Of a stretch of DNA of 64,000 nt, positions 215 through 40,607 are shown piece by piece (position 1 is the first letter of the stretch; each line of letters begins with the position of its first letter). Made by a program: the position numbers and the translations under genes. A model generated the notes under the pieces. That model worked only from the letters and a program-made list of their open reading frames with translations, ran no database searches and was not told the origin of the DNA. The DNA comes from an archaeon GW2011_AR19. Lineage in GTDB: Archaea > Nanobdellota > Nanobdellia > Pacearchaeales > GW2011-AR1. The stretch lies in contig JWKY01000001.1 of assembly GCA_000806015.1 (NCBI GenBank), positions 43,569-107,568 of the forward strand, written 5' to 3'.

Positions 215-838
215 TTAAAATGAATTTTTAATTTTAGTTCCTGAAAAATTTACAAATTTTTCTGTTCCAACATGCAAAGAAGTTGATTTATATGAATATC
301 TATACACGCATTTTGGCCATTTCATTTCTGATTTCCCATATCTTTCTGATTTTGGGGTTTCAACAGATCTATTATTGTCTTCAACTATAAACGTGCAAGG
401 CAAATCCCATCCATCAACATATCTCACTGCTTCGTAAAAATGTCCTTCGTCTTCTACACCATCACCTCCAAAGCACCAAACTTTTCTTTTACTGCATTGA
501 TGTTTTAATGCATATGCAACTCCTGCAGCAATGCAAGGAACTCCAGCAACAATAGCTGAAGTTAAAAAATTAATTTCTTTGTCAAAAACATACATGCTAT
601 CTCCTCTTAAAATCATTTTTTCAAGTTTTTCAGGAGAGCCGCCCTTAAGCAAATAATGATAATGAGAACGATGAGTTGAAAAAACATAATCTTCAGGATT
701 AATTTTTTTAAAAATTTCAATTAAATGCTCTTCATTTCCACCAGAAAAATGTACGGGGTAGGGAATTTTTGCGGCTTCCCATAATATTTTTATTTTATTT
801 TCAAAATCAATTAATTTTTCCTTTGTTATTTTTTCCAT
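215..838 (-). CDS. TPP-dependent dehydrogenase E1 alpha-like subunit (short, 207 aa)
   Basis: It has the TPP-binding GDG...NN motif (CFGGDGVEDEGHFYEAVRYVDGWDLPCTFIVEDNNRSV). It also has an E1-alpha-like YRxHxxxLxxG segment (THRSHYHYLLKGG) and an IVAGVPCIAAGVAYALK segment. It is much shorter than canonical E1 alpha (~320 aa). Confidence 0.55.
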   Translation of the reverse strand: MEKITKEKLIDFENKIKILWEAAKIPYPVHFSGGNEEHLIEIFKKINPEDYVFSTHRSHYHYLLKGGSPEKLEKMILRGDSMYVFDKEINFLTSAIVAGVPCIAAGVAYALKHQCSKRKVWCFGGDGVEDEGHFYEAVRYVDGWDLPCTFIVEDNNRSVETPKSERYGKSEMKWPKCVYRYSYKSTSLHVGTEKFVNFSGTKIKNSF

Positions 839-1024
839 CTTATCTCTTTTTAAGTGTAAGTTTTTAAAGATTTAGATTTTATAATCTTTATATTTTCGGA
901 TGTATTTGTTAGAAATTAAAATAATTTTTTCAAATTATTTTTACAAAATTTTAGTATATTCCGAAATATATTTTAAATTATCACAATAATCCTTTTAAAT
1001 CTCCTAATTTTTGCCTTTGATACA

Positions 1025-2122
1025 ATGAAAGTAAAATTTTCATATCTAGAAGAACAATTCAAAAATCCAGAACCAATTTTTAAAGATATAAAAAAATTAG
1101 TGAAGAGCAGTGATTTTACTCTTGGAAAAGAAGTTTTTGAGTTTGAAAAACAATTTGCTAAACTTTGTCAAACTAAATATGCAATAGGAGTAGGCACAGG
1201 AACAGACGCAATTAGGTTAAGCCTTCTTGCTTTAAATGTTGGAGCAAGAGACGAGGTTATAACTGTTCCAAATACTTTTTATTCTACTGCTGAAGCAATT
1301 GCAACTACGGGAGCAAAGCCAGTTTTTGTTGACGCTGGCGACGACTATAATATAAATCCTAACTTAATTGAAAAGGCAATAACAAAAAAAACAAAAGTAA
1401 TTCTTCCTGTTCATCTTTATGGTTGTCCAGCTAAGATGCCCGAAATTATAAAAATTGCTAATAAACATAATCTTTTAGTTATTGAAGATGCTTGTCAGGC
1501 AATAAATTCTGCAATAAATAAAAAGAAAGTCGGCTCTTTTGGAATTACTGGATGTTTTAGTCTTCATCCGTTAAAGGGAATTAATGTCTGGGGTGATGGC
1601 GGAATTATTACAACAAATTCTCAAATTGTTAGAGACGAACTATATATGCTTAGAAATAATGGTCTTAAAAATAGGAATGAATGCGCAAGATATTCTTATA
1701 ACTGCAGACTTGATACACTGCAAGCAATTGTTGCTCTTCATGTAATAAAAGATATTGATTGGATAACTAATAAAAGAATTGAAAATGCAAAATTTTATGA
1801 CAAAGAACTTTCAAAATTTTCTCAAATAACAATTCCAGAAAGAGCGAAAGATGTAAAACAAGTTTATCATACTTATGTTGTAAAAGCAAAAAACAGAGAC
1901 GAACTTTATAATTTTTTATTAAAAAATAAAATTGAAGCAAAAATTCATTACCCTATTCCACTGCATTTGCAGGAAGCAAGCAAATACCTTAATTACAAAA
2001 GAGGAGATTTTCCAAAAACAGAAGAACAGGTAAAATCAATAATAACGCTTCCAGCCCATCAGCATTTAAAAAAAGGGCAGTTAGAATATGTTGTTAAAAA
2101 GATAAAGGAATTCTACAAATGA
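1025..2122 (+). CDS. DegT/DnrJ/EryC1/StrS-family PLP-dependent sugar aminotransferase
   Basis: Aspartate aminotransferase fold type I sugar aminotransferase signatures: GTDAIRLSLLA and the Schiff-base lysine context CFSLHPLKGIN. Length is 365 aa. The stop overlaps the next start (ATGA). Confidence 0.85.
   Translation: MKVKFSYLEEQFKNPEPIFKDIKKLVKSSDFTLGKEVFEFEKQFAKLCQTKYAIGVGTGTDAIRLSLLALNVGARDEVITVPNTFYSTAEAIATTGAKPVFVDAGDDYNINPNLIEKAITKKTKVILPVHLYGCPAKMPEIIKIANKHNLLVIEDACQAINSAINKKKVGSFGITGCFSLHPLKGINVWGDGGIITTNSQIVRDELYMLRNNGLKNRNECARYSYNCRLDTLQAIVALHVIKDIDWITNKRIENAKFYDKELSKFSQITIPERAKDVKQVYHTYVVKAKNRDELYNFLLKNKIEAKIHYPIPLHLQEASKYLNYKRGDFPKTEEQVKSIITLPAHQHLKKGQLEYVVKKIKEFYK
1316..1397 (+). 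repeat. 82-nt block identical to 2422..2503 inside two paralogous aminotransferase genes (a 36-nt core also recurs at 14315..14350)
   Basis: Direct reading of both loci: aagccagtttttgttgacgctggcgacgactataatataaatcctaacttaattgaaaaggcaataacaaaaaaaacaaaag. Confidence 0.8.
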
Positions 2123-3222
2123 ACGAAATTTTAGTTAAATACATAAATTTTCCCCTTCAATATAAAAAAATAAAAACAGAATTGTTTAGGACTATTGAAA
2201 ATGTTTTTGAATCTGGAAATTTTATTCTTGGTTCAGAAGTAGAAAAATTTGAAAAAAATTTCGCAAAATACTGCGAAACTAAATATGCTCTCGGAGTTGG
2301 GAATGGAACAAGCGCTCTATTTTTGGCAATGAAAGCGCTCGGAATTGGAAATGGGGATGAAATCATAACAGCTTCTAATTCTTTTCTTGCAACTACCGGC
2401 GCAATAGCGGCGACAGGGGCGAAGCCAGTTTTTGTTGACGCTGGCGACGACTATAATATAAATCCTAACTTAATTGAAAAGGCAATAACAAAAAAAACAA
2501 AAGCAATAATGCCTGTTCATCTTACTGGAAGACCTGCAAGTTTAGATAAAATTTTAGAAATTGCAGATAAAAATAAAATTTATTTGATTGAAGATGCGGC
2601 TCAAGCTATTGGCGCAAAATATAATGGAAAAAAAGTTGGCTCTTTTGGAATTGCAGGTTGCTTTAGCTTGCATCCGCTTAAAAATTTGAATGCTTATGGA
2701 GATGGTGGAGTAATAACTGTTAAAGATAAACAACTTTATGAAAATCTAAAAAAAATGCGCAATCATGGTCTCAAAAATAGGGACGAATGTGATTTTTTTG
2801 CTTTCAATTCAAGACTGGATGAGTTGCAGGCATCAATACTAAATGTGAAAATGAAATATTTAGACAAATGGACAAAAAAGAAGCGTGAAATAGCATCTTT
2901 TTATCAAAAAAAACTTTCTAATATTGTAAAAGTTCCTCTCGATAAATCAAATGAATACGCAGTCTATCACACATTTATAATTCAGGTAAATAAAAGAGAT
3001 AAATTACAAAAGTTTTTGCTGCAAAAAGGAATTGAAACAAAAATTCATTATCCTATTCCAATTCATTTACAGAGAGCTGCTCAATATCTTGGTTATAAAA
3101 AAGGAGATTTTCCAAAAGCAGAAAAGCAAGCTGAAAAAATATTAAGTTTGCCAATATATCCGGAACTTAAAGAAGAGCAATTAGAACTTGTTGTAAAAGA
3201 GATAAGAAATTTTTATTCTTAA
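2119..3222 (+). CDS. DegT-family PLP-dependent sugar aminotransferase (tandem paralog)
   Basis: Same family (GNGTSALFLAMKALG; CFSLHPLKNLN). It shares an 82-nt perfectly identical block with the upstream paralog (2422..2503 = 1316..1397). Confidence 0.85.
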   Translation: MNEILVKYINFPLQYKKIKTELFRTIENVFESGNFILGSEVEKFEKNFAKYCETKYALGVGNGTSALFLAMKALGIGNGDEIITASNSFLATTGAIAATGAKPVFVDAGDDYNINPNLIEKAITKKTKAIMPVHLTGRPASLDKILEIADKNKIYLIEDAAQAIGAKYNGKKVGSFGIAGCFSLHPLKNLNAYGDGGVITVKDKQLYENLKKMRNHGLKNRDECDFFAFNSRLDELQASILNVKMKYLDKWTKKKREIASFYQKKLSNIVKVPLDKSNEYAVYHTFIIQVNKRDKLQKFLLQKGIETKIHYPIPIHLQRAAQYLGYKKGDFPKAEKQAEKILSLPIYPELKEEQLELVVKEIRNFYS

Positions 3223-4487
3223 ATAAAATTAACATGCATCGGAATCTTTTCTCCAGAAACATCTGGAAGAGGGATATTTTTTTCTGCAAGATCAAACAAA
3301 ACTTCATTTACTTTATCCTGTAAACACAATGTTCCGCATCTTTTTCTAGGATCAAATTTGTCTGAGCCTAAATAGCCCATAACTTTCCAGTATCTATCAC
3401 TTGCCCAAATGTCTTTAAATCTTTGTTGAGCAAAATTACCAATATGGAAATTTTTATAATCTGTGTGAAAAAACATTCCGCATGGCGCCACAAGGCAGGT
3501 GCCTGATGTTTGCAATAAAACTGGAGGTCCAAAACATTTTGAATATTTTCTATCTCTGCCTGTTCTGATTTTTGACCATTTTGCCTGCACTGAATAATCT
3601 TTTGTTGAAAGCGCTTCTGCTATTTTTAAAAGCCCTAAAGCTTCTGGAGTTTTGTACCAGTTATAATCAACTCCAAGTCTGCCGTTTTCATCGTCGCTGC
3701 AGTGTTTTATAATAGTATAGTCAATTTCAGTATCTCTTCCAAGAAGAGCTAAAGGAATAATTTGGTCTGCGCATTCTGGGAGCAAAACCATTTGCGCTCC
3801 TATTGTTACATCAAAATTATTTTCTTTTTTTATTTTGACGCATTCTTTCATTGTATCTATTACTTTATGGAAATTTTTTTCATTAGTTCCCATAATTTTT
3901 GCATATGCTTCAGGTTCTCCCGCAGAAATATTAAAGCGAAGATATGTTAATTCAGAGAGCAACTCTTCAAGTTTTTCACGCTTTAATGCCTGCCCATTAG
4001 TTCCAGATGCCATGTCAAAACCATTTTGTTTTCCTTTTTTAACAAAATCATAAAAATAAGGATTTAAAGTGCTTTCGCCGTCGCTGACAAGACTTATTGC
4101 TTTTACTCCTTCTCCAGGTTTGTGTCCTATTTTAACGCAATCATCAAGAAAATTAGAATAAACCTCCCAGGTCGTTGGTGAATCTGGATTGAACTGCAAA
4201 CCAGCATAACAATAAGTGCAGGCATACTGGCATTTCTGAGTAAGCGCCATATCAATGGTAATAGGCGCGATTTTTTCTCCTCTAAACCAGGCATCTACTC
4301 TTTCTTTATGAAAAGCTATTTTTGTTGTATCAAGATGAAATTTTTCTCTCGGATCTATCTCAAAATTTAGCAGAGGTTTTATGCGTTGAATATCGCTTTT
4401 TATTTTTTCCCAGTTTGTACTATGATTAGAACCATTATTGCTTATTTTGTTTTTTCCTTCAAGCAATTGAGATATTATTTCTTCCAT
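3219..4487 (-). CDS. radical SAM enzyme with Cys-rich C-terminal (SPASM/twitch-like) region
   Basis: Cx3Cx2C motif in TQKCQYACTYCYAG. Several additional C-terminal cysteines (CFGPP...CLVAPCGMF...CGTLCLQD). Confidence 0.7.
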   Translation of the reverse strand: MEEIISQLLEGKNKISNNGSNHSTNWEKIKSDIQRIKPLLNFEIDPREKFHLDTTKIAFHKERVDAWFRGEKIAPITIDMALTQKCQYACTYCYAGLQFNPDSPTTWEVYSNFLDDCVKIGHKPGEGVKAISLVSDGESTLNPYFYDFVKKGKQNGFDMASGTNGQALKREKLEELLSELTYLRFNISAGEPEAYAKIMGTNEKNFHKVIDTMKECVKIKKENNFDVTIGAQMVLLPECADQIIPLALLGRDTEIDYTIIKHCSDDENGRLGVDYNWYKTPEALGLLKIAEALSTKDYSVQAKWSKIRTGRDRKYSKCFGPPVLLQTSGTCLVAPCGMFFHTDYKNFHIGNFAQQRFKDIWASDRYWKVMGYLGSDKFDPRKRCGTLCLQDKVNEVLFDLAEKNIPLPDVSGEKIPMHVNFI

Positions 4488-4551
4488 TTTATAATTAAAG
4501 TGTATAATCAGAAATAATAAACTATAAAAACTTATTGGTTATCAAATTTTT

Positions 4552-4893
4552 ATGAGACAAATTCCAAACATTTTAGAAAATACTGGCATAAGCAGAGATT
4601 ACATTTTGGCATTTGGCAGTATAGATAATTATATCAGAAGAATAGAAAAAAAAGAAGGACTAAGATGGATAAGGTTGGCTGAAAATGCATATTTTAATCG
4701 ACCAATTCTTAAATATGAAGAATATTTTAATCATTCAGAATATGAACAAGTTATTACAGATAAAAATCATGAAAAAATAAAAAATCTTGATGAACTTGTG
4801 GAAGAAATAAACAAAATGAGGGAAAATAAACAAAAAGATTATGAAAAACTTTCTGTATTATGGAAAAAAGCAAAAAAAATTATTTTTAGCTAA
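4552..4893 (+). CDS. hypothetical protein (113 aa)
   Basis: ORF only; Lys/Glu-rich C-terminus; no recognisable motif. Confidence 0.3.
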   Translation: MRQIPNILENTGISRDYILAFGSIDNYIRRIEKKEGLRWIRLAENAYFNRPILKYEEYFNHSEYEQVITDKNHEKIKNLDELVEEINKMRENKQKDYEKLSVLWKKAKKIIFS

Positions 4894-4954
4894 GCGCAAA
4901 AAATTTTAGAGGATAGAATTTGATTATTTTTTTTATTTAAATGTATGAAAATTT

Positions 4955-5953
4955 TTATTTTAAATTCACTTGCTGCATAAGTTTAATATTATGATATAAT
5001 GGATTAGACAAACCTTCTTTTATCAAGCTATTATTATATACCTCAACAAGACTTTGCACAGCATTTTCTAATGTATATTTTGGTTCAAAATTCAAAATGC
5101 GTTTCATTTTATCAGAATTAATATGATAAGACCTTGTATCTGTTGTAGGAAGATATTCAAATTCAACTGAATCATCATTAATAACCTTTTTTACTATTTT
5201 AGCGATGTCTTCCACAGTTCTGTTTTGGTATCCGATATTAAAGATTTCTCTGTTAATTTTTTTTCCTGGCGCTTCCAAAAGAATTTCATACGCCTGCGCC
5301 ATATCTTTTATATTTATGTTTGGTCTAAGCTGTTTTCCTCCAAAAATTTTTATTTTCTTATTTATCAGAGCATTCATAGTTAGTATATTCACAGTTAAAT
5401 CTATTCTCAAGCGCGGAGCATAACCGCATACTGTTGCAGGTCTTGCTATAATATATTCTAAGCCATTGAGATTTGAGTTTGATAAAACTTTTTCACATTC
5501 AAGTTTGTATTTTGAATAATCTGTTAAAGGTTCAGGAAAAGTTTCTTCTGTAACATTTTTTTCTTTTTTAACTCCATAAACACTGGAAGAGCTGGCATAA
5601 ATAATTCTTTTAACATTATTTTTTTTTGCAGCTTCTAAAATATTGAAAAAAGCATCATAGTTTATAGATTTTCCAAGCGCAGGATTAAGTTCATAGCTTG
5701 GATCATTTGAAATGCATGCTAAATGTATAATTGCGTCGGCATTTTTCGCAGATTCTATTAATTTTTTTTTGTTCCTGATATCTCCTTTTATTTGATTTAA
5801 ATTTGGATTGCTTTTTAAATTAGAAAAAATATCTCCATACAAATATAAATCATAAACAGAAACATTATAATTTTTTTTCAATAGAGCTGGAACTAAGGCG
5901 CTGCCAACATAACCAGCCCCACCAGTAATAAAAATATTTTTGAATTGTGTCAT
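4955..5953 (-). CDS. NAD-dependent NDP-sugar epimerase/dehydratase (extended SDR)
   Basis: N-terminal Rossmann motif ITGGAGYVGSALV. 332 aa with an YxxxK-type catalytic region (YSKYK). Confidence 0.8.
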   Translation of the reverse strand: MTQFKNIFITGGAGYVGSALVPALLKKNYNVSVYDLYLYGDIFSNLKSNPNLNQIKGDIRNKKKLIESAKNADAIIHLACISNDPSYELNPALGKSINYDAFFNILEAAKKNNVKRIIYASSSSVYGVKKEKNVTEETFPEPLTDYSKYKLECEKVLSNSNLNGLEYIIARPATVCGYAPRLRIDLTVNILTMNALINKKIKIFGGKQLRPNINIKDMAQAYEILLEAPGKKINREIFNIGYQNRTVEDIAKIVKKVINDDSVEFEYLPTTDTRSYHINSDKMKRILNFEPKYTLENAVQSLVEVYNNSLIKEGLSNPLYHNIKLMQQVNLK

Positions 5954-5954
5954 T

Positions 5955-7481
5955 TTACCAGCTCATCAGAGATTTAATATATTTATAAAGCGCAATTTTT
6001 TCTATAGATTCTTTATTTCCTATTGTTTTTACTTTCAAAGCGCCAATAGCATTTCCAATAAAACCTACAATTTCCATAGGAACGTTTAAAGCTACGAGAG
6101 GGGAAGTTATAGAAAGAAAAGCATCTCCGGCGCCCATTGTATCAACAACATGGTTTGAAAAAGCAGGTATTTTTTTTATGCTGTTTGAAGAAAAAATTAT
6201 GCAGCCCTGAGAACCCCGAGTAACAAGAATTTTATCACAAGAAACTCTTTTTGCTGCAATTGGAAGAAGTTCCGAGATTTCATCTTTTTTATTTAGGCAC
6301 TCCAGACGCAATTCACGTTCATCAAGACAAATATAATCTGCTTTGGAATATTTGGAAATAACATTATAGCCCATATTTCCTGCGTTTACTTGAGTATTAA
6401 CTGCAAGAAATTTTGATTTTTTTGTAATTAAATCAATTAATTCATTATTTAACATTCCATGTCCAAAATCTGCAACAATAATTACATCATAATCCGGGAG
6501 TATTTCATCTAAATGAAGATATAATTCTTTTGCCTGATCGTAATCAAGGTGGTTATCATTAAATTCATAAAATTCTAAGAGTTTTCTAAAATCTGGAACT
6601 TCTTCAATAAATCTTCTTTTGACAATGGTTGGAGAATCTTTTTTATGATGAAAAAGTCTTTTTATTTTTTTATTTAAATTATCTTCAATAAAATTTTCTT
6701 GAATATCTCTCTCTCCCAGCAATGTAAAAAGAGCTACATTCTCGCAGAAATCCGCTAAATGATTTGCTATTGCGAGAGTGCCGCCGGCAAATTTTTCTGT
6801 ATTTAGATATTTTAGCGCAAGAATAGGTTCTTTGCCCGCTTTTCCTATAGATTTGCCATAGCAATATTCATCTATGATTGCTTCGCCAATAACTAATATT
6901 TTTAAATTTTTTATTTGCTCAAGATAGCCTATTACTTCTTTTTGGCTGTATTTTTTAGAAAGTTCAATAAGAAAATTTTCAGATTCTTTTGTAAAAATAT
7001 TCATGTAGCGATTGATAAGCGCTGAAGAGCTGAAAACTAAATCATCAGTAAATTTTAACTGCCCCCCAACTTCTTTTATCGCGTTTTCTTCTTCAATTAT
7101 GCCCCGAGAATAATCATTTTCAATATTTTTATATTCTATCCCTTTAACATAGAAATCTGGTTTGAGAAACTTCATAGTATTTACTGCAGTTGGCCATTTA
7201 TTTAGAGCAACATAATCAATGATATCAAGAGAAGCAAGCACTTCCATTCTGATATTTTGATGAAATATCGGGTTATGTGGTCCTTTTTTTACATATTCAT
7301 CAGGAGTTAAAGTAACAATAAGTATGTCTCCGTATTTTTTTGCTTGTTCAAAATGTCTAATATGGCCTATATGCAATAAATCAAAAACGCCATGGCAATA
7401 CACAATTTTTTTCCCTCCTGTTTTTAAATTTGAAATTATATTTTGTAACTCTTCCAAATTTACTAATTTGTTGTTTTTCAT
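5955..7481 (-). CDS. hldE: bifunctional heptose-1-phosphate adenylyltransferase / heptose-7-phosphate kinase (HldE/RfaE-like, domains in reversed order)
   Basis: The N-terminal is a cytidylyl/adenylyltransferase domain with an HxGH motif (VYCHGVFDLLHIGHIRHFEQAKKYGDILIV; KGPHNP). The C-terminal is a pfkB/ribokinase domain with the RfaE-domain-I-like start ILVIGEAIIDEYCYG and the DTxGAGD motif (VVDTMGAGDAF). Confidence 0.7.
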   Translation of the reverse strand: MKNNKLVNLEELQNIISNLKTGGKKIVYCHGVFDLLHIGHIRHFEQAKKYGDILIVTLTPDEYVKKGPHNPIFHQNIRMEVLASLDIIDYVALNKWPTAVNTMKFLKPDFYVKGIEYKNIENDYSRGIIEEENAIKEVGGQLKFTDDLVFSSSALINRYMNIFTKESENFLIELSKKYSQKEVIGYLEQIKNLKILVIGEAIIDEYCYGKSIGKAGKEPILALKYLNTEKFAGGTLAIANHLADFCENVALFTLLGERDIQENFIEDNLNKKIKRLFHHKKDSPTIVKRRFIEEVPDFRKLLEFYEFNDNHLDYDQAKELYLHLDEILPDYDVIIVADFGHGMLNNELIDLITKKSKFLAVNTQVNAGNMGYNVISKYSKADYICLDERELRLECLNKKDEISELLPIAAKRVSCDKILVTRGSQGCIIFSSNSIKKIPAFSNHVVDTMGAGDAFLSITSPLVALNVPMEIVGFIGNAIGALKVKTIGNKESIEKIALYKYIKSLMSW

Positions 7482-7530
7482 TTGGCAAATTTTCTGTTTG
7501 ACGAATGCGTCAAAAATTTTTGTTCTATTT

Positions 7531-8541
7531 TCATTTTTTGTCTAAATATTTAAACCAATCTTTTGTTGCTTTAGATATAGATTTTTCATTCCAAACAGGA
7601 GCGGTTTTCCAATAATTTATATTGTTGAGCATTATTTTAACTCCTTCTTCTAAACTAATCTTTGGCTGCCAGCCTATTTTTTTCTTTATTTGTGTTATAT
7701 CTGCTAAAGTTTTATCTGGCTCTCCAGGTCGTTTAGGGATATAAATCTTTTTTTCTCCGCCTAAAAGATTTGCTAATTTATTTATACTTTGATCTTCTCC
7801 AGAACCAATATTAAAAATCTCTCCTTTCAAATCTGATTTTGCTGACAGAACATAAGCTTTTACTACATCGCTGACAAATACAAAATCTCTTGTTTGATTT
7901 CCATCTCCGACTATTGTAAAAGGTTTTTCTGAGATTTTCTGGGCTAAAAAAACTCCAAATACTGCGCCATATGCTCCTGAAGTTCTGGATCTTGGACCAT
8001 AAACATTAAACATTCTTAAAGATAAAGAAGGCAAGCCATAAATTTTATTCCAATGCATTACATATTGTTCAGCTAAATATTTTGTAAGCGCATAAGGATA
8101 TTGCGGATTTGTCGACGCTGTTTCTGGAGTTGGATATTTATCTGGAATGCCATAACAAGATGAAGAAGCAGCATAAACAAAACGTTTTACATTATTTATG
8201 CGCGATGCCTCTAAAACCGAAATTGTTCCTTCTACATTTGAATGATGATAAGACAATGGATTTTTTATTGAAGGAACAATATCTGCAAGAGCAGCAAGAT
8301 GAAAGACATAATCTATTTTGTTAAAATATTTTTTGATATTCTTAAAATCAGCAACATCTGCATTTACAATTCTTAAATTTTTATTTTTTTTGTGTTGAAC
8401 AAGATTATCTATTCTGCCGGAAGAAAAATTATCGATAACTGTAACTTTGTAATCTTCTTTTAGCAAATAATCCACTAAATGGCTTCCTATGAATCCCGCG
8501 CCTCCCGTTACAATAGCATTTTCTAATTTTGATTTTTTCAT
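7531..8541 (-). CDS. NAD-dependent NDP-sugar epimerase/dehydratase (extended SDR)
   Basis: IVTGGAGFIGSHLVDYLL Rossmann motif; YxxxK (YALTK); 336 aa. Confidence 0.8.
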   Translation of the reverse strand: MKKSKLENAIVTGGAGFIGSHLVDYLLKEDYKVTVIDNFSSGRIDNLVQHKKNKNLRIVNADVADFKNIKKYFNKIDYVFHLAALADIVPSIKNPLSYHHSNVEGTISVLEASRINNVKRFVYAASSSCYGIPDKYPTPETASTNPQYPYALTKYLAEQYVMHWNKIYGLPSLSLRMFNVYGPRSRTSGAYGAVFGVFLAQKISEKPFTIVGDGNQTRDFVFVSDVVKAYVLSAKSDLKGEIFNIGSGEDQSINKLANLLGGEKKIYIPKRPGEPDKTLADITQIKKKIGWQPKISLEEGVKIMLNNINYWKTAPVWNEKSISKATKDWFKYLDKK

Positions 8542-8603
8542 AATTTTATGATTTTGTTTCGCATTTAAATATTTGTTGATGAATAATTATCTTTAATATT
8601 AAA

Positions 8604-9170
8604 TTATTTTTTTTCAAGATATTCTATCACTTTATGGCAAATCTGCAGATGAATGTCTTCAACAATTCTGTATTCTTTTTTAGCAGTTTTGACTAAAATA
8701 TAATCATCTAATATATCTTTGGCTTTACCTCCATCAAAGCCGAGCAATCCAAAAGTGTATGCGCCGAGAGTCTTTGCAGTTTTTATTGCCTTTAAAATGT
8801 TTGGAGAATTTCCGCTTGCGCTAATAACTATTTCTAATCCCCCTTTAGATAAATAATTTATTGATTGTTGCGAAAATACTTCATCGTAGGAAAGATCATT
8901 TCCATAAGCTGTTATTGCAGCCACATCATTTAAACTCATTGCTCTGAATCTTTTTTCATTAATTGAGTTTAAATTTTTGACGGTGCTTTTGTTTAAGTCT
9001 AAACTAAAATGAGAAGCTGTTGTTGAGCTTCCTCCATTTCCCATAATTAAAATTGGTTTGCGTTTATCGCGAGCTTTTTGAAGCAATAAAACCAGTTTTT
9101 CTATTTTGGCGTTATCAACAGTTTTTTTCGCATATTCAAATTTTGAATCATACTCTTTTAAGCAGTCCAT
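8604..9170 (-). CDS. gmhA: SIS-domain phosphoheptose isomerase (GmhA-like)
   Basis: ILIMGNGGSSTTASHFSLDL matches the GNGGSxxxAxHFxxEL sedoheptulose-7-P isomerase signature. 188 aa. Confidence 0.65.
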   Translation of the reverse strand: MDCLKEYDSKFEYAKKTVDNAKIEKLVLLLQKARDKRKPILIMGNGGSSTTASHFSLDLNKSTVKNLNSINEKRFRAMSLNDVAAITAYGNDLSYDEVFSQQSINYLSKGGLEIVISASGNSPNILKAIKTAKTLGAYTFGLLGFDGGKAKDILDDYILVKTAKKEYRIVEDIHLQICHKVIEYLEKK

Positions 9171-9532
9171 TAGAATTTTAAGATATTAGCTTTTTAAAGG
9201 TTATATTTTCTTGAATTATTATGTTTTTATATACTCTTTTTCAAGATTATTAATATATTCTCCTAATTTTTTTAATTTTTCACTAGGATAAAGGTAAGGT
9301 ATTTCAAAATCCGGAACGGGATTTCTTATATATTCTGCCAAAACATCTGTTTTATATATTCCTTGATTTAATAATTGGAGATAATATTCTGAATCTGGGG
9401 TAGAAAATTTTAGCGGATTTTTGATTAAACTATCTTAATTTCATTTTCAAATTAATTTTAAGCAGGTTTTAATATATATTTTAGATTATCACGAGAATAT
9501 TTTTAAATCCTTTAATTTTTGTTGTTGATGCA

Positions 9533-10678
9533 ATGAAAAAGCAAATAGTTTTTATAGAGTATTTTCCAACGATAAATGGATATAAGATAGCTAAAGGTCT
9601 TAAGAATACCGGAAAGTATGAAACAGTTTTAATATCTTTTAATAAAGTTGATAAAAAATTTTTTGGAATTGCTTATGATAAAATTATTAATTTAGAAATA
9701 AGTCAGAAAATTAATCTTAAAAATTTGTTCTTTTTTATTAAGAAAATATTTAGTAAAGAGGGGTCAAAGTTCTTTGCAGAAATAAAATCTCTCCATCCAT
9801 ATATTGTTCAAGTTAATAATTTGGATTTATTAACCAGGCTCTCTCTTTTTTTAATTGATGCAAAAGTTCCAAAAATTTATTATGCTTATGATATTCTTGC
9901 ATTTTACAGGAAAAAGTTTAGTATGCGGGAAAATTTTCTAAAAAAAATTGAAAAATATTATTTTAAAAATATGGATGGAATATTACATAAAGGTCCAAAA
10001 GGAGAGCTGGAATTTTTAGATTATTCAGTAAATGCTCCTGATTTAGCCTTGCTTCCAGGATGCTTGGAAGATTGGACTCATGTTCCTAAAAAAAAGAATA
10101 TGAAAGAAATTCACCTTGCTGTTGCTGGACCTCCGCTTGAAGGCAGTTATTATCTCCACTCCTTTAAAGACATAATAAAAGAGATTACCTCTCAAAAAAT
10201 CCATTTGCATACTTATGGAAAATCTCTTTTTAATGACGAGTATTTTTTAAATGAACAAAAAAATAATTTTTATTTTCATTATCATGATAAAATTAATCCA
10301 AAAGAACTGAATAAAGAAATTTCTAATTATCAATATGGCATAGTCCTTGATTTTTTTAACAAATTAATTAATCCTTTATGGTTAAAAACTTCTATTGGTA
10401 ATAAGATGTATAATTATTTGGAAGCAGGCTTGCCAATAATAATGACTAATGATCTCAAGGCTATGACGGAGATTGTTAAAAAACATAAACTTGGAATTGG
10501 TATTGATTACAAAGATATTAAAGAATTAAAAAATATTTTAAGTAAGCTGAATTATGAAAAACTTCAAAAAAATGTAAAGATAGCTCAAAAAGAATTAAGC
10601 ATAACTAATCTCGTCAAAGAATTGGAAAGTTTTTATGAAAAAGCAGCTGAAAGCAAAAATAGGAAATTTGCCAAATGA
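9533..10678 (+). CDS. hypothetical protein, possible divergent GT-B fold glycosyltransferase
   Basis: The C-terminal region (YNYLEAGLPIIMTNDLKAMTEIV) resembles the EX7E-region of GT1/GT4 enzymes. Otherwise no clear motif. Confidence 0.4.
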   Translation: MKKQIVFIEYFPTINGYKIAKGLKNTGKYETVLISFNKVDKKFFGIAYDKIINLEISQKINLKNLFFFIKKIFSKEGSKFFAEIKSLHPYIVQVNNLDLLTRLSLFLIDAKVPKIYYAYDILAFYRKKFSMRENFLKKIEKYYFKNMDGILHKGPKGELEFLDYSVNAPDLALLPGCLEDWTHVPKKKNMKEIHLAVAGPPLEGSYYLHSFKDIIKEITSQKIHLHTYGKSLFNDEYFLNEQKNNFYFHYHDKINPKELNKEISNYQYGIVLDFFNKLINPLWLKTSIGNKMYNYLEAGLPIIMTNDLKAMTEIVKKHKLGIGIDYKDIKELKNILSKLNYEKLQKNVKIAQKELSITNLVKELESFYEKAAESKNRKFAK

Positions 10679-10743
10679 AAGAAAAATTAAAAATAGATAG
10701 TAGATATTAAAAAAGATTAAAAACCCATTATCCAATAATATTT

Positions 10744-11613
10744 TTGTATAAAATGGAGAAAATCTTAATTACTGGGGGCAGCGGGTTCATTGGTTCGCAC
10801 TTATCTGAATTTCTTTTAGGTCGAAACTACAAACCAGTAATATTTGATGCTAAAACTCCTCCATCTAATGGTATAGAATGTTATCTTGGAGATATAACTA
10901 AAAAAAATTCATTAAAGGAAATTCCAGAAGTCGACGGAATTGTTCATCTTTGCGCAATAAGCAGAGTTAAAGATGCTTTTGATAATCCTGCTCATTGCAT
11001 GGATATTAATCTAATGGGAACTATAAATATTCTTGAATTTGCAAGAACCTCTAAAAAAAATCCATGGGTCTTAATTGGAAGCACAACTGAACCCCCTAAA
11101 AATATTTACGGAGTTTCAAAACATCTCGCTGAACTTTGCGCTGAAACATATTCGCGAGAATATAATTTAAATATTTCTGCATTGAGATTTGGTACAGTTT
11201 ATGGATCACCCAGAGACAACCAAGATAGATTAATACCTCGTTGGATAGAAAATGCCAAATCTGGCAAAGAAATCATAGTAGACAACCCTGCAAGGCAGTT
11301 TGATTTTATTTATATTGATGATGTGATTGAAGGAATTTTTAGAGGCATAAATTATGTGAATTATGGAAGACCCTTTGAAGCAATTCCAATATGCACTGGA
11401 ACTCCGACTAATTTAGGAGACTTAGCTAAGATAATAGTTGAAGAAGCGCAATCACCATCTAAAATTATTTCTAAAGACGCGCATCAAGAATATTTCATTC
11501 AGCCAAATCCTGAAAAGGCAAGGAACTTACTGGAATTTGAAGCAAAAACTTCTATGCGCGAAGGAATTAGAAGATTGTTATCAGTTGATTTACTAAATTA
11601 TGTTGAAAGCTAA
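10744..11613 (+). CDS. NAD-dependent epimerase/dehydratase (short SDR, 289 aa)
   Basis: ILITGGSGFIGSHLSEFLL Rossmann motif; YGVSK catalytic Tyr/Lys. Confidence 0.75.
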   Translation: MYKMEKILITGGSGFIGSHLSEFLLGRNYKPVIFDAKTPPSNGIECYLGDITKKNSLKEIPEVDGIVHLCAISRVKDAFDNPAHCMDINLMGTINILEFARTSKKNPWVLIGSTTEPPKNIYGVSKHLAELCAETYSREYNLNISALRFGTVYGSPRDNQDRLIPRWIENAKSGKEIIVDNPARQFDFIYIDDVIEGIFRGINYVNYGRPFEAIPICTGTPTNLGDLAKIIVEEAQSPSKIISKDAHQEYFIQPNPEKARNLLEFEAKTSMREGIRRLLSVDLLNYVES

Positions 11614-12043
11614 TTCATATAAAATGGAAAATTATAAAAAATCAGTCAATGCAATTTTAGTTAATTCTAAAAAACAAATTCTTCTTCACCTTAGAGATGA
11701 TAAGCCTGGAATACTTGCTCCAGGATGTTGGGCTTTTATTGGGGGAGGTGTTGAAGAAGGAGAAAGCGGACCGGATGCAATTAAACGGGAAGTAAAAGAG
11801 GAAATAAATTATTTAATAAATGATTTTCAATATTTGGATAAAATTTATTTTAGGAAATATAAAATGGATGTCTTAGTTTATATTGGAAAATTAGATGCGC
11901 GTGAGGATGAGATTAAACTTACTGAAGGCCAAGGCGTAAGATTTTTTTATCCAGATGAAATAAAAAAACTTAAAATGTCTAATCTTCTTAAGAAAATAAT
12001 TTTCAGAAATTTAGAGAAAATTATTTTTGCAGCAAATAATTAA
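11600..12043 (+). CDS. NUDIX hydrolase
   Basis: Nudix box GGGVEEGESGPDAIKREVKEEINY (GX5EX7REUXEEXGU). Confidence 0.8.
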   Translation: MLKANSYKMENYKKSVNAILVNSKKQILLHLRDDKPGILAPGCWAFIGGGVEEGESGPDAIKREVKEEINYLINDFQYLDKIYFRKYKMDVLVYIGKLDAREDEIKLTEGQGVRFFYPDEIKKLKMSNLLKKIIFRNLEKIIFAANN

Positions 12044-12238
12044 AAATTTTATGAGAAATTTTATTATTTATAGATGATTGACGCATTTTAGCAAACTGTG
12101 AAATATTACATCAAATTCAAGCAATAAAAGAAATAGTTTTTAAATCACAATAATCTTTTTAAACAATTTTTGCCCAAAAATTAAACTCAATAAAAATGAA
12201 AAACTATAAAATCCTCGTTATAAAAACTTTTAAAGAAA

Positions 12239-13948
12239 ATGGCTTCAAAAAATAATCTTTTGGGAATTTGTGCTGGTGGTCCCAGCGGGGCTGCATTATT
12301 TCAAAATGAAAAATTGACATTAGCAGTCAATGAAGAAAGATTTACTGGAATCAAATTAGATCGGTCTTATCCCCATAATTCTATAAATTGGTGTCTTAAA
12401 GAGTCAGGATTGTCAAATAAAGATATAGACGCTATTTGTTATGGCTTCTCAAATGGAATTGAGCAGGGAGATTTTATGGCATCCATGATAAAAAGAATTT
12501 ACGAATATTCTGATAATCCCAAATCCTTAAAAGCGATATGTGAACGGCTTAGCGTCGAAGCTGAAGTTGACTCTAAAAAAAGAAAAAGTTTTTATGAAGA
12601 AACATCTAAAATTTTTTCAGAAGTTCCTATTTATTCCTGCTCTCATCATCAAGCGCATCAAGCCTGCGCGTATATGGCCTCTCCTTTTAAAAAGGCGCTT
12701 GTAATAACTTCTGATGGAAGAGGGGATTTTGAATCATTAACAGTTAGCGCCGCAAATTCAAAAGGAATTAATAAAATTTATAGCGCCTTTAGCTGGGAAA
12801 GTTTGGGATATTTTTATGGACGAATAACTCATTTATGCGGTTTCAAACCAGAACGGCATGAAGGAAAGATCCTTGGATTATCTGCGCATGGAAACCCAAA
12901 AATAGCAAAAAAGTTAATAGATAAAATGGTGGACATTAAAGATGGAAAGATATGCACTTTTCCAGGAGATTTTTATACGCCTTTTTTTACAAACTATTCC
13001 AAACGCTTAAAAAAAGAAGCTTCTGAATTTTCTAGAGAGGATTTAGCAGCAGCCACTCAATTAAAGTTAGAGGAAGTGGTTTGTAATATTGTTTCAAAGA
13101 ATGTTCATAAAACTGGTTTAAAAAATATTTGTCTTGCTGGAGGGGTGTTTTCAAATGTAAGATTAAATCAAAAAATTAGAGAACTTCCAGAAGTTAAGGA
13201 TGTTTTTGTTTATCCTAACATGGGAGATGATGGTTTATGCGCTGGAGCAGTATATCATAAATTATTATATGAACATAAAATTTCCAGCAGTCCAATAAAA
13301 TCTCTTTATCTTGGTCCTAAAATTTCTAATGATGTTCTTTTATCTACTTTGAACAAAAAAGGGTTTAAAGTTGAAAAACCAGATAAGTTATACGATTCTA
13401 TTGTTAAGCTTTTAGAAGAAGAACAGGTCATAGCTTTAGTGCAAGGAAGAACCGAATTTGGTCCAAGAGCATTGGGAAATCGAAGTATTTTACTAACTCC
13501 TGATTCAGAATCTTTAAGCAATTTTTTAAATAAACGTTTAAATAGAAATGACTTCATGCCCTTTGCGCCGGTTATTGCTTCTAATCTTGCAAAACATTGT
13601 CTTGTGAATTATTCCAAATCACAATTTTCAGCCCGCCATATGGTTATGACCTATGATGTTTCACCTAAATTTAAAAAAAATTCGCCCGCAGTAGTGCACG
13701 TTGACAGCACTGTCCGTCCGCAGGTAGTTTTTAAAGAAGATAATTTATTTTTATATGAATTATTAAATCATTGGTATAATAAAACAGGAAAACTATGCCT
13801 TATTAATACTTCATTTAATTTACATGAAAATCCCATAGCTTCTTTAGAAAAAGATATAATTTATAGTTTTGAATCAAATGCTGCTGATTGTCTTTTATTT
13901 CCGCCGTATATATCTTATCAAAAAGAAATGGAGTTGTCTCTTTATTAA
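12239..13948 (+). CDS. carbamoyltransferase (NodU/CmcH family)
   Basis: N-terminal ICAGGPSGAALFQNEKLTLAVNEERFTGIK resembles NodU/CmcH (HDSAAAL...EERFTR). 569 aa, typical two-domain size. Confidence 0.75.
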   Translation: MASKNNLLGICAGGPSGAALFQNEKLTLAVNEERFTGIKLDRSYPHNSINWCLKESGLSNKDIDAICYGFSNGIEQGDFMASMIKRIYEYSDNPKSLKAICERLSVEAEVDSKKRKSFYEETSKIFSEVPIYSCSHHQAHQACAYMASPFKKALVITSDGRGDFESLTVSAANSKGINKIYSAFSWESLGYFYGRITHLCGFKPERHEGKILGLSAHGNPKIAKKLIDKMVDIKDGKICTFPGDFYTPFFTNYSKRLKKEASEFSREDLAAATQLKLEEVVCNIVSKNVHKTGLKNICLAGGVFSNVRLNQKIRELPEVKDVFVYPNMGDDGLCAGAVYHKLLYEHKISSSPIKSLYLGPKISNDVLLSTLNKKGFKVEKPDKLYDSIVKLLEEEQVIALVQGRTEFGPRALGNRSILLTPDSESLSNFLNKRLNRNDFMPFAPVIASNLAKHCLVNYSKSQFSARHMVMTYDVSPKFKKNSPAVVHVDSTVRPQVVFKEDNLFLYELLNHWYNKTGKLCLINTSFNLHENPIASLEKDIIYSFESNAADCLLFPPYISYQKEMELSLY

Positions 13949-13950
13949 AA

Positions 13951-15063
13951 ATGATTTGGAAAGTGCCGTATATTAATCTTGGAAAACAATTTAAAAATTT
14001 AGAAAAAGAATTAACTGCAGAATTTAAAAGAGTGATGAATAATGGAGATTTTATTCTCAGGGCAGATGTAAAAAAATTTGAAGAGAACTTGGCAAATTAT
14101 TTAGGAGTAAATCATGTTATTGGTGTTAATTCTGGAACTGATGCTCTATATCTTTCTACAGATGCTTTAGAAATTAAGTCTGGTGACGAGGTTATAACTG
14201 TTGCTCATAGTTTTGTTGCAACAGCAGCTTCTATAGTTTATAGAAGAGCAAAACCAATTTTTGTTGATATTGGAGATGATTATAATATAAATTCTAATTT
14301 AATTGAAAAAGTAATAACAAAAAAAACAAAAGCAATAATGCCTGTTCATTTAAATGGGCGATCTTGTGAAATTGAGAAAATAATAGATGTGGCAAAAAAA
14401 TATGGGCTATTTGTGATAGAAGATGCTGCTCAAGCACTGGGCGCAGAATATAAAGGAAGGAAAGTCGGAAGTTTTGGAAATCTTGGTTGTTTTTCATTGC
14501 ATCCAATGAAAACTTTAAGTTGTGCAGGAGATGGAGGGTTTATATCTACAAACAATGATTTTTTAGCAGATAAAATCAGAACATTAAGAGACCACGGGCA
14601 AAAGATTAAAGGAGATTATTTATTTTTTGGGCATAATAGCAGACTGGATAACTTGCAGGCAGCAATATTAAATGTTAAATTTCAACATTTGGACGAGTAT
14701 ATAAAAAAAAGAAGAGAAATTGCAGAAAAATATAATGAAGAATTATCTTCACTACCAATAATTCTTCCTCCTGCCCCTTCTAATGAAAAATATTTTGATA
14801 CTTATACTTCTTATGTTATTAGAACAGATAAACAAGAAAAATTAATTAAATTTTTAAGAGCTCAAGACATAGAGTCATATATTCATATTAATCAGCCCCT
14901 ATATTCTTATCCTGGCCTCAATTTAAAAAATTTTCATTTGAAAAATAACGAAAAAATATGCAAAGAAATTTTATCTCTCCCCATTTATCCTGAAATGAAT
15001 GATAAACAAACTAAATATGTTATTGATTCAATGCATAAATTTTTTAGTGAGGATAGTAGTTAA
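13951..15063 (+). CDS. DegT-family PLP-dependent sugar aminotransferase (third paralog)
   Basis: GTDALYLSTDAL and CFSLHPMKTLS. The start is moved to the first ATG after the upstream stop (MIWKVPY...). It shares a near-identical nucleotide patch with the 2119..3222 paralog. Confidence 0.8.
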   Translation: MIWKVPYINLGKQFKNLEKELTAEFKRVMNNGDFILRADVKKFEENLANYLGVNHVIGVNSGTDALYLSTDALEIKSGDEVITVAHSFVATAASIVYRRAKPIFVDIGDDYNINSNLIEKVITKKTKAIMPVHLNGRSCEIEKIIDVAKKYGLFVIEDAAQALGAEYKGRKVGSFGNLGCFSLHPMKTLSCAGDGGFISTNNDFLADKIRTLRDHGQKIKGDYLFFGHNSRLDNLQAAILNVKFQHLDEYIKKRREIAEKYNEELSSLPIILPPAPSNEKYFDTYTSYVIRTDKQEKLIKFLRAQDIESYIHINQPLYSYPGLNLKNFHLKNNEKICKEILSLPIYPEMNDKQTKYVIDSMHKFFSEDSS

Positions 15064-17345: not shown

Positions 17346-17912
17346 CTATAATCTTTCTTTTGAAGTTACTCTTGTTTCTAAGAAATGCGCTTTTCCTAAA
17401 TTAGACATTTCTGCTAAATCTCTAACGCCCTTTAAGTTAACATCTCGAAGATTGGCATTCCCGAAGTAAGTGCCCTTGAGGTAAGCACTCTGGAGGTTAG
17501 CGCCATCGAGGTTGGCGCCTCTGAAGTTAGCAATCCAGAAGTCAGCATTAACAAGGTAAGCGCTCTTGAAGTTAGTACCCTTGAGGTTGGCATTCCCAAA
17601 GTTAGCATTCTCGAAATTGGCGTTCTCGAAAATAGCATACTCGAGAATAGCCCCTCTGAAGTTAGCATTTCTACCAATTGTGAAAGGTAAATATAATCCT
17701 CTTGCTTTTACATATTGAAGTTGGGAATTACTAATATCGACCGGTTCTTCTTGTAAGTTTTGCGCTTTCAAATACATTTTTAATTCTTGAAATGCACTAT
17801 GCCCACTTAAATCAAATCTTTCTTCAAGAGATATTTTAGAAAAATTTCTTTCTCCACTTAAGAGTTTTACTATGAATTCCTCTCCTGAAACTTTTGTTAA
17901 ACTTTCTGCCAT
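17346..17912 (-). CDS. pentapeptide-repeat protein
   Basis: Tandem A(N/D)LxG/A(N/D)Fxx pentapeptides (ANFRGAILEYAIFENANFENANFGNANLKGTNFKSAYLVNADFWIANFRGANLDGANLQSAYL) after an ~80-aa N-terminal domain. Confidence 0.8.
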   Translation of the reverse strand: MAESLTKVSGEEFIVKLLSGERNFSKISLEERFDLSGHSAFQELKMYLKAQNLQEEPVDISNSQLQYVKARGLYLPFTIGRNANFRGAILEYAIFENANFENANFGNANLKGTNFKSAYLVNADFWIANFRGANLDGANLQSAYLKGTYFGNANLRDVNLKGVRDLAEMSNLGKAHFLETRVTSKERL

Positions 17913-40063: not shown

Positions 40064-40603
40064 ATGGAAATACAATCTACAGAGTTTAAAGGATTATTTT
40101 TAATAGCGCCAAATGTATATTCAGATAGCAGGGGTTATTTTTTTGAAAAATATAATAAAAAAATATTCGCAGAAAAGAGCATTACTCAAGATTTTTTGCA
40201 GGAAAGTGAATCTTTTTCTTATAAAAATACCCTTAGAGGATTGCATTTTCAAAAAAAACCTTTTGAACAAGGAAAACTTGTTTCTGTTGTTCAGGGAAGC
40301 ATAAAAGATGTTGTTGTGGATATAAGAAAAGATTCTCAGAATTATGGAAAATGGAAAGCATTTCTTCTTGATTCTAAAGAAAAAAAATCTCTTTTTGTTC
40401 CAGAAGGATTTGCCCACGGATTTCTTGCTTTAGAGGATTCAATAGTGTCTTATAGAATAACTGCACTTTATAATAAAGAATCAGAGTCGGGCATAATTTG
40501 GAATGATTCATTTCTGAATATAAATTGGGGGATATCTAATCCTATTTTATCTGAGAAAGATAAAAAACTCCCAATTTTCAATGACCTATCAAATCTAATT
40601 TAA
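40064..40603 (+). CDS. rmlC: dTDP-4-dehydrorhamnose 3,5-epimerase family (RmlC)
   Basis: DSRGYFFE...LRGLHFQKKPFEQGKLVSVVQGSIKDVVVDIRKDSQNYGKW...FVPEGFAHGF...GIIWND is a full RmlC signature. Confidence 0.85.
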   Translation: MEIQSTEFKGLFLIAPNVYSDSRGYFFEKYNKKIFAEKSITQDFLQESESFSYKNTLRGLHFQKKPFEQGKLVSVVQGSIKDVVVDIRKDSQNYGKWKAFLLDSKEKKSLFVPEGFAHGFLALEDSIVSYRITALYNKESESGIIWNDSFLNINWGISNPILSEKDKKLPIFNDLSNLI

Positions 40604-40607
40604 TAAC

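Follow-up and report, generated by a model that had tools for sequence, protein, structure and literature searches.

The open reading frame at positions 5955..7481 (minus strand) of a 64,000-nucleotide stretch of DNA from the archaeon GW2011_AR19 (contig JWKY01000001.1, positions 43,569 to 107,568; the whole stretch is called the window here) is predicted to encode a two-function enzyme. Its family is distinct and widespread, a paralogue of the heptose enzyme HldE with the two domains swapped. The enzyme probably carries out the kinase and nucleotidyltransferase steps of a sedoheptulose-7-phosphate-derived nucleoside diphosphate (NDP)-heptose route, which feeds a tailored sugar for an N-glycosylation locus. 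The gene and its parts are as follows.

5955..7481, minus strand: gene of the domain-swapped HldE-like protein (ATG start, 508 amino acids; nucleotidyltransferase followed by PfkB kinase)
7008..7436, minus strand: N-terminal nucleotidyltransferase domain, amino acids 16-158, with the HxGH motif as H37-I-G39-H40
6906..6989, minus strand: two-helix linker, amino acids 165-192 (helices 165-177 and 180-192 by DSSP of the AlphaFold2 model), conserved in the family alignment
6012..6923, minus strand: C-terminal PfkB kinase domain, amino acids 187-490, with the GAGD anion-hole/catalytic motif at amino acids 450-453 and TRG at 421-423

Pfam places CTP_transf_like (PF01467) at amino acids 29-137 with 51.6 bits (cut-off 21) and then PfkB (PF00294) at amino acids 194-494 with 76.7 bits (cut-off 25.8), both above the gathering thresholds. 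The first score and HIGH at amino acids 37-40 make the N-terminal half a member of the cytidylyltransferase-like HxGH family, and the second score and a ribokinase-like fold make the C-terminal half a member of the PfkB superfamily. An earlier reading of the same DNA, made from the letters alone (the sequence-only reading), had proposed an inverted order with the adenylyltransferase N-terminal and the kinase C-terminal. This order is upheld by Pfam, by NCBIfam, and by the swapped BLASTP alignment to HldE of E. coli K-12 (NC_000913.3), in which amino acids 10-118 align with residues 326-436 (37% identity, 9e-19) and amino acids 187-504 with residues 5-314 (22% identity, 4e-15). The motifs quoted in that reading are present in the protein, namely KKIVYCHGVFDLLHIGHI at amino acids 24-41, ILVIGEAIIDEYCYG at 195-209, and DTMGAGDAF at 447-455. 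The catalytic motifs are intact: H37, G39, H40, G450, G452, and D453 are invariant across 106 family sequences, as is TxG at 421-423. The AlphaFold2 model of the 508-amino acid protein has a predicted local distance difference test score of 90.2 and a predicted template modeling score of 0.87. The nearest relative is encoded by a Candidatus Pacearchaeota metagenome-assembled genome (locus L001), with 88% identity and identical gene order. The ratio of nonsynonymous to synonymous substitution rates (dN/dS) of the fusion gene against this Pacearchaeota orthologue is 0.15. Such purifying selection indicates that the gene is functional and constrained. With this ratio and with full-length homologues at E = 0 and 50-91% identity, the frame is evidently not a chance open reading frame.

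Both halves are related to heptose enzymes. The nucleotidyltransferase half scores 105.2 bits with the NCBIfam model rfaE_dom_II, compared with 40 for TagD and 25 for an FAD-synthase (RibF)-related model, and the kinase half scores 120.7 bits with rfaE_dom_I, compared with 45 for ribokinase. These two rfaE models are the top profiles for all 22 sampled members of the family, with TagD and ribokinase more than 20 orders of magnitude behind, and the three heptose models match all 22 members at similar E-values (best 5e-54, 1e-38, and 1e-32). Fold searches with the predicted structure found HldA and HldC closest to the kinase and nucleotidyltransferase halves, respectively. For the kinase half, the Foldseek E-value of ribokinase was approximately 7-8 orders of magnitude weaker than that of HldA. 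A single-sequence phmmer search against PDB left the nucleotidyltransferase half approximately equidistant from ECT, the Thermoplasma protein 3glv, and HldC. This ambiguity was resolved because the best profile of 3glv itself is rfaE_dom_II, and because a small neighbor-joining tree split the heptose-type nucleotidyltransferases and 3glv from TagD/ECT with 92% bootstrap. A TagD identity (TIGR01518, 40 bits against a cut-off of 165.4) was rejected on its score and on this split, a ribokinase identity (TIGR02152, 45 bits against 299.65) was rejected on its score and because Foldseek favors HldA, and a RibL/FAD synthetase identity was rejected on profile, tree, and fold evidence. The heptose-type kinship of both halves is therefore retained, as no grouping with TagD, FAD synthetase, ribokinase, or fructokinase was seen in the profiles, the neighbor-joining tree, or the fold searches. 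By profile score and predicted fold, the halves are closest to rfaE domain II/HldC and rfaE domain I/HldA, yet the protein is not an HldE equivalog. No NCBIfam model attains its cut-off on the 508-amino acid protein, and the four relatives with listed bit scores are likewise under the HldE equivalog cut-offs. A profile of the family gives 860 bits for the query, 78 and 66 for the halves of E. coli HldE, and 55 for archaeal HldA.

The swapped fusion is found in many other organisms. In a search of 5.8 billion proteins, the best 120 matches were all full-length and colinear, with 50-91% identity. Among the matches listed for species-representative genomes there were 585 relatives, and phmmer, run exhaustively against 1.84 billion cluster representatives (clusters at 50% identity), gave 1,277 clusters at E <= 1e-30. 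Both counts are maxima, since canonical HldE might also exceed these thresholds; colinear, full-length structure was verified for the best 80 loci (42-52% identity, with a few cut by contig ends) and for the best 150 clusters, which have the same order. The hosts of the best 80 include bacteria of the Planctomycetota, Verrucomicrobiota, Nitrospirota, Chloroflexota, Acidobacteriota, Desulfobacterota, Elusimicrobiota, Coxiellaceae, and Legionellaceae, as well as Waddlia, and the archaea Nitrosotalea and Thermoplasmatales. In the family tree, the sequences from DPANN and Methanocellales fall together, nested inside bacterial diversity, in which the bacterial phyla are scrambled. In the trees of single domains, the kinase halves of the reversed family form one clade (97% bootstrap). 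The nucleotidyltransferase halves form a clade (66%) that includes the second, stand-alone-type nucleotidyltransferase of the Pacearchaeota relative. Both clades lie next to the canonical HldE, HldA, and HldC sequences that were sampled and not inside them, which is how the separate phylogeny of the halves, proposed earlier as a check, turned out. The wide spread, the colinearity, and the scrambled phyla indicate that the swapped architecture did not arise in this lineage. The sequences describe the fusion as an old, widespread, horizontally scattered, and mostly bacterial family. The independent fusion event implied by the sequence-only reading is thus consistent with the single-domain trees insofar as it means a fusion separate from that of canonical HldE, but it is not private to this lineage. 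Given the sampling of the trees, an ancient permutation may be an alternative origin. Public annotation of the members is generic, such as "adenylyltransferase/cytidyltransferase family protein", "PfkB family carbohydrate kinase", and, at JGI, "rfaE bifunctional protein".

Four tightly spaced genes on the minus strand form a run in the order SIS, SDR_A, fusion, and SDR_B, with the fusion gene in third place. The three partners are listed here.

8604..9170, minus strand: GmhA-like isomerase of the SIS_2 type, at the head of the four-gene run (gmhA is the top NCBIfam match, 99 bits against a cut-off of 209)
7531..8541, minus strand: SDR_A, extended SDR of the epimerase/dehydratase family, directly upstream of the fusion gene (GalE 183 bits, heptose_epim 141.6 bits, none above cut-off)
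4955..5953, minus strand: SDR_B, extended SDR by Pfam and NCBIfam, starting 1 nucleotide past the fusion stop; the most constant partner

The dN/dS values of these four genes against the Pacearchaeota orthologues range from 0.09 to 0.17. The gene at 8604..9170 was correctly named as GmhA-like earlier, with the limit that its best match is under the cut-off. Its product is 32% identical to E. coli GmhA and keeps the GmhA residues H61, D94, S119, S121, S124, and H180. Two of the four zinc-binding positions of GmhA are changed (E65D and Q172E) across the subfamily, that is, in the window protein and 36 homologues, which could reflect a shifted metal or substrate preference.

The neighborhood is conserved in the family. 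A total of 86 loci were labeled by tblastn, and the partners were counted in the 53 loci with at least 4 kb on each flank.

SDR_B: 41-43 of 53 loci, median identity 50%
SDR_A: 31-44 of 53 loci
GmhA-like SIS: 36 of 53 loci
Methyltransferase of approximately 220 amino acids: 28 of 53 loci
Split transketolase: 25-28 of 53 loci
APH-like kinase: 22 of 53 loci
Zinc-dependent alcohol dehydrogenase (Zn-ADH): 20 of 53 loci
SDR_C (a third SDR): 18 of 53 loci
Pyruvate dehydrogenase E1 (PDH-E1) alpha/beta pair: 11-13 of 53 loci
GmhB-type phosphatase: 8-9 of 53 loci

A split transketolase (28 loci) or an E1 pair (12 loci), with both in two loci, lies downstream of SDR_B in 38 of the 51 loci with enough flank. 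Loci with the split transketolase usually carry Zn-ADH, the APH-like kinase, the third SDR, and the methyltransferase, and loci with the PDH-E1 pair often carry DegT, radical SAM, and NUDIX genes. The two enzymes look like alternative thiamine diphosphate (ThDP)-dependent C2-transfer enzymes of one operon slot, and this interchangeability suggests that the nucleotide sugar is extended or branched by a C2 unit. The thiamine enzyme more likely belongs to the tailoring chemistry than to precursor supply, because the E1 pair cannot provide sedoheptulose 7-phosphate. In the cultured host Solidesulfovibrio carbinolicus, the fusion gene adjoins a NeuB-family gene, SIS, radical SAM genes, and the split transketolase. 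This NeuB-family gene is short (L090 11085..11942) and belongs to the phosphoenolpyruvate-condensing synthases. A metagenomic relative also has a NeuB-family gene (L094 7268..8149), one gene upstream of the fusion with a small radical SAM/SPASM gene between them, and CMP-sugar-type cytidylyltransferases lie near it.

GmhB-type phosphatases accompany the fusion in lineages that are expected to have no lipopolysaccharide (LPS). In Chloroflexota/Dehalococcoidia loci, GmhB lies approximately 80-750 bp downstream of the fusion, and in a Methanocellales locus the nearby GmhB scores 196 bits, above the NCBIfam cut-off of 178. Natural domain fusions also exist. P0150 (699 amino acids) is a three-domain relative with GmhB-like, nucleotidyltransferase, and PfkB domains, and P0205 (764 amino acids) has nucleotidyltransferase, PfkB, and GmhA-like SIS domains. 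The neighborhood and these Rosetta-stone fusions link the family with each of the four activities of an NDP-heptose pathway. The Pacearchaeota relative differs from the window by an indel next to SDR_B, which was mapped with blastn.

4948..4953, strand not applicable: indel junction, at which a 1.18-kb insert of the Pacearchaeota relative (L001 12529..13711) is absent from the window

In L001, the insert directly follows SDR_B and holds a 365-amino acid gene in which an HldC-like nucleotidyltransferase (rfaE_dom_II, 93.6 bits) is fused to a GmhB-like HAD domain (58 bits).

The data show the order of the domains, their homology and fold, the intact catalytic motifs, purifying selection, the conserved neighborhood, and the natural fusions; the mechanism proposed from them is an inference as to substrate, sequence of reactions, nucleotide, and destination of the product. 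The GmhA-like isomerase would form heptose 7-phosphate, which the C-terminal PfkB domain would phosphorylate at O-1 with ATP to give the 1,7-bisphosphate. A 7-phosphatase, which is of the GmhB type in relatives and would be encoded outside the window, would remove the 7-phosphate. The N-terminal HxGH domain would then join heptose 1-phosphate to some nucleoside triphosphate (NTP), yielding NDP-heptose. SDR_A and SDR_B would act on this nucleotide sugar, and in this cluster the E1-like thiamine enzyme, the aminotransferases, the radical SAM enzyme, and the carbamoyl- and methyltransferases would likewise tailor it. The product would finally enter a glycan assembled by the glycosyltransferases of families GT2, GT4, and GT9, the flippase, and AglB of the window.

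Several results weigh against this reading. The scores stand well below the equivalog cut-offs (full-length NF008454, 171 against 521; TIGR02198, 120.7 against 345; TIGR02199, 105.2 against 181.5), and the kinase half is approximately 20% identical to canonical heptose kinases and 16% identical to E. coli RbsK. According to the commentaries on Tang et al. 2024, heptose nucleotidyltransferases carry the motif (F/L)xxGxSTT, in which the Arg of STTR5 governs NTP promiscuity (PMC11461863, PMC11573728). In the fusion, it is replaced by DDLVFSSS (VFSSS at amino acids 149-153; family consensus DDITFSSS), so that position 5 is Phe and not Arg in the family, and the Gly is also missing. No GmhB-type or other HAD phosphatase was found in the 64-kb window by tblastn with E. 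coli GmhB, Methanocellales GmhB, and the HAD half of the L001 gene, or by Pfam on nearly all open reading frames of at least 100 amino acids. GmhB is near the fusion in just 8-9 of the 53 loci, SIS was not found in 17 of the 53, and two other relatives of the archaeal branch have neither SIS nor GmhB within 9 kb of the fusion. The Methanocellales locus L004 (2448..6592) combines the reversed fusion with a near-canonical HldA (330 bits, cut-off 345), a split transketolase, a transaldolase, and a bona fide GmhB, and it thus has two heptose-type kinases. L001 and L083 have a second HldC-like nucleotidyltransferase alongside the fusion. These extra enzymes imply that the fusion domains may not simply duplicate the HldA and HldC roles. 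The literature consulted, in which Tang et al. 2024 was represented by commentaries, yielded no assay of a family member and no description of the swapped order. The earlier name HldE-like is apt in that both halves are nearest to heptose enzymes by profile and fold, but it overstates the case for an HldE equivalog, since the scores are one-third to one-half of the cut-offs and GxSTT is replaced. Similarly, the predicted NDP-heptose branch gains from the GmhA-like neighbor and from the existence of a GT9 domain in the window, and it loses from the missing GmhB and from the 28 kb that separate the GT9 domain from the fusion gene. Two weak PHP-associated (phosphoesterase-related) open reading frames at 51088..51933 and 52442..53266, both on the plus strand, are the sole, remote phosphatase-like candidates of the window.

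Four other explanations were weighed. The same two chemistries, anomeric phosphorylation and nucleotidyl transfer, could act on another sugar phosphate, such as an octose or other aldose derived from a ketose phosphate, or a hexose derivative, with SIS isomerizing a different ketose phosphate. The lincomycin octose route has an analogous set of isomerase, kinase, phosphatase, and nucleotidyltransferase. The low heptose equivalog scores and the family-wide E65D and Q172E changes of the metal ligands would fit such a substrate, and the transketolase and transaldolase genes of the operon could build ketoses other than C7. This explanation is rather unlikely, as heptose-specific profiles and folds are the nearest ones for every partner activity, the Methanocellales GmhB passes its equivalog cut-off, and SIS keeps the sugar-phosphate-binding serines of GmhA. 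A pathway with no 7-phosphatase step, or with the two domains in non-consecutive steps, would give an NDP-heptose 7-phosphate or a kinase that acts on a later intermediate. It would account for the absence of GmhB from the window and from most loci, for the canonical HldA (L004) and HldC-like nucleotidyltransferases (L001, L083) that coexist with the fusion, and for the APH-like kinase that is common in the operon. However, Gram-negative hosts have a housekeeping GmhB elsewhere, the lineages expected to have no LPS carry their own GmhB by the fusion, P0150 joins a GmhB-like domain directly to the family, and the Pacearchaeota sister genome has a GmhB-like domain one gene away, which makes this pathway unlikely.

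The route could also be broken or idle in this genome through loss of the HldC-like/GmhB-like gene, leaving the fusion gene as a remnant. The clean 1.18-kb indel relative to L001 and the lack of a phosphatase candidate in 64 kb, save the two PHP-associated frames, agree with such a loss. Against this, all four genes of the run are intact with the low dN/dS values given above, most loci of the family are also without an adjacent GmhB, and an insertion in the sister lineage would explain the indel equally well, so a broken route is very unlikely. Least probable, to the point of being hardly credible, is a function of the halves outside heptose metabolism, in which a TagD-like CDP-glycerol enzyme or a RibL-like FAD synthetase would be joined to a ribokinase- or fructokinase-like kinase. 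The equidistance of the nucleotidyltransferase half from ECT, 3glv, and HldC in phmmer would allow it, but the rfaE scores exceed those of TagD, the RibF-related model, and ribokinase by a wide margin, 3glv has rfaE_dom_II as its best profile, the tree splits off TagD/ECT, and the folds lead to HldA and HldC.

The four-gene run is part of a larger module, whose remaining members by Pfam are listed here.

215..838, minus strand: E1-alpha-like ThDP protein, left arm of the module
1025..2122 and 2119..3222, plus strand: two DegT aminotransferases, left arm
3219..4487, minus strand: radical SAM/SPASM protein, left arm
11600..12043, plus strand: NUDIX hydrolase, right arm, with counterparts in the Azospirillum oryzae locus and L001
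12239..13948, plus strand: carbamoyltransferase, right arm, with counterparts in the A. oryzae locus and L001

The region 215..15063 of the window matches a plasmid locus of A. oryzae KACC 14407 (L091, NZ_CP054615.1) almost gene for gene over approximately ten genes. Identity to the A. oryzae counterparts is 59% for SDR_A, 55% for radical SAM/SPASM, 49% for SDR_B, 45-46% for the DegT pair, 40% for the fusion, 36% for SIS, 33% for the E1-alpha-like protein, 29% for the carbamoyltransferase, and 28% for NUDIX. Two B12-binding radical SAM enzymes, encoded at 18100..19401 (plus strand) and 19557..20897 (minus strand), face each other on the border of the sugar cluster, and a pentapeptide-repeat protein is encoded at 17346..17912 (minus strand).

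The window also encodes the glycosylation machinery that may use the product. Two of its genes are listed here.

35069..36955, plus strand: two-domain glycosyltransferase, GT9 (heptosyltransferase family) and GT2 (Glyco_transf_9 at amino acids 64-315, 49.9 bits, cut-off 22)
46442..49195, minus strand: AglB/STT3-like oligosaccharyltransferase (Pfam STT3; TIGR04154 archaeo_STT3, 103.9 bits, below cut-off)

The region is regarded as an N-glycosylation locus because of the AglB/STT3-like gene, beside which the window encodes a flippase, GT4, GT2s, and the GT9 domain. The earlier assignment of a GT9 domain was borne out by its Pfam score and by its fusion to GT2, although its match to the heptosyltransferase II model of NCBIfam is weak (51 bits, cut-off 134.6). 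GT9 is unusual for an archaeon. The GT9/GT2 protein is a possible consumer of NDP-heptose. GT9 as a conserved consumer of the family was rejected, as none is near the fusion in the 85 other loci. The archaeal markers of the window are L19e, L32e, uL6_arch, uS5 of the archaeal/eukaryotic type, archaeal SecY, and the AglB-like STT3, and an Rfam scan of the window found no RNA families. At 27157..29466 (plus strand), a 769-amino acid fusion joins an SDR epimerase/dehydratase domain to a sugar C-methyltransferase (Methyltransf_13/23/14), and a second, stand-alone C-methyltransferase lies at 38722..39966 (minus strand). RmlC (dTDP-4-dehydrorhamnose 3,5-epimerase, 213 bits) and an RmlD-like reductase are encoded at 40064..41423, which indicates a separate deoxyhexose branch in the same glycosylation region.

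A wider reading can be offered tentatively, and it is less likely to be right than wrong. The fusion may catalyze the committed step of a horizontally mobile pathway, so far undescribed, in hundreds of bacterial and archaeal species, in which an NDP-heptose (maybe non-ADP) would be oxidized by the paired SDRs, C2-extended or branched by a ThDP enzyme (split transketolase or PDH-E1-like pair), and decorated by aminotransferases, radical SAM/SPASM enzymes, and carbamoyl- and methyltransferases. The result would be a new higher-carbon or branched surface sugar, placed on N-glycans in this DPANN archaeon.

If the proposed role of the fusion is correct, the family would be a second, architecturally distinct solution for heptose activation. 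It is kept alongside canonical HldE in many Gram-negative phyla, and some archaea and some lineages expected to have no LPS would depend on it alone. NDP-heptose synthesis would then be tied directly to an archaeal N-glycosylation locus, and the purpose of manno-heptose in archaea, which became a question after Tang et al. 2024, would have a concrete explanation. The family would also flag a large conserved operon, with SDRs, thiamine-dependent C2 transfer, radical SAM enzymes, and aminotransferases, that an Azospirillum plasmid and a DPANN archaeon have in common. As NDP-heptoses are agonists of ALPK1, an unrecognized family of producers and its nucleotide preference would have some relevance to innate-immune sensing. 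The main value lies in the large conserved operon and in the link of heptose activation with archaeal N-glycosylation. Solidesulfovibrio carbinolicus DSM 3852 and A. oryzae KACC 14407, whose orthologues are WP_129356083.1 and WP_149200362.1, respectively, are cultured hosts that are open to experiment.

The fusion shares with HldE of the E. coli type both domain families, the HxGH and GAGD motifs, and an adjoining GmhA-like gene, and the two reaction types are probably the same. It differs in its reversed order, in its low identity (37% for the nucleotidyltransferase half and 22% for the kinase half), in having VFSSS (TFSSS in the family) for GxSTT with scores of one-third to one-half of the equivalog cut-offs, and in its operon, which has two SDRs, thiamine-dependent enzymes, aminotransferases, and radical SAM instead of LPS-core genes. 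The family co-occurs with canonical HldE in Gram-negative phyla; therefore, it is a paralogue, presumably with another end product. HldA and HldC (e.g., of Burkholderia; PDB 4e84, 5x9q) are separate polypeptides, unlike the fusion, and the halves of the reversed family make their own clades (97% bootstrap for the kinase) that are not nested among HldA, HldC, and HldE. The GDP-D-glycero-alpha-D-manno-heptose route (GmhA, the GHMP kinase HddA, GmhB, and HddC) supplies heptoses for S-layers and capsules, with subsequent SDR-type tailoring. It resembles the proposed route in providing heptose for surface glycans rather than for the LPS core, but neither its GHMP-family kinase nor its NTP_transferase-family nucleotidyltransferase is homologous to the fusion domains.

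Heptose had been described by the sequence-only reading as not often reported in archaeal N-glycans. This is less new than implied, because archaeal NDP-heptose enzymes exist and were shown to make ADP-heptose, as related in the commentaries on Tang et al. 2024 (PMC11461863, PMC11573728), and ADP-heptose clusters have been noted in Methanococcus maripaludis strains (PMC12667266). Literature searches on CDP-heptose, Methanococcus heptose enzymes, and DPANN heptose gave nothing specific. The heptose nucleotidyltransferases (HENases) of Tang et al. 2024, which span kingdoms, are of mono-, di- (kinase/nucleotidyltransferase), and tri-domain (isomerase/kinase/nucleotidyltransferase) types (PMC11461863, PMC11573728); in the commentaries the didomain type is kinase/nucleotidyltransferase, and a swapped order is not mentioned. 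A role in archaeal NDP-heptose synthesis, probable for the fusion, is common ground with the HENases, from which the fusion family differs by Phe instead of Arg at motif position 5 and by the loss of the Gly.

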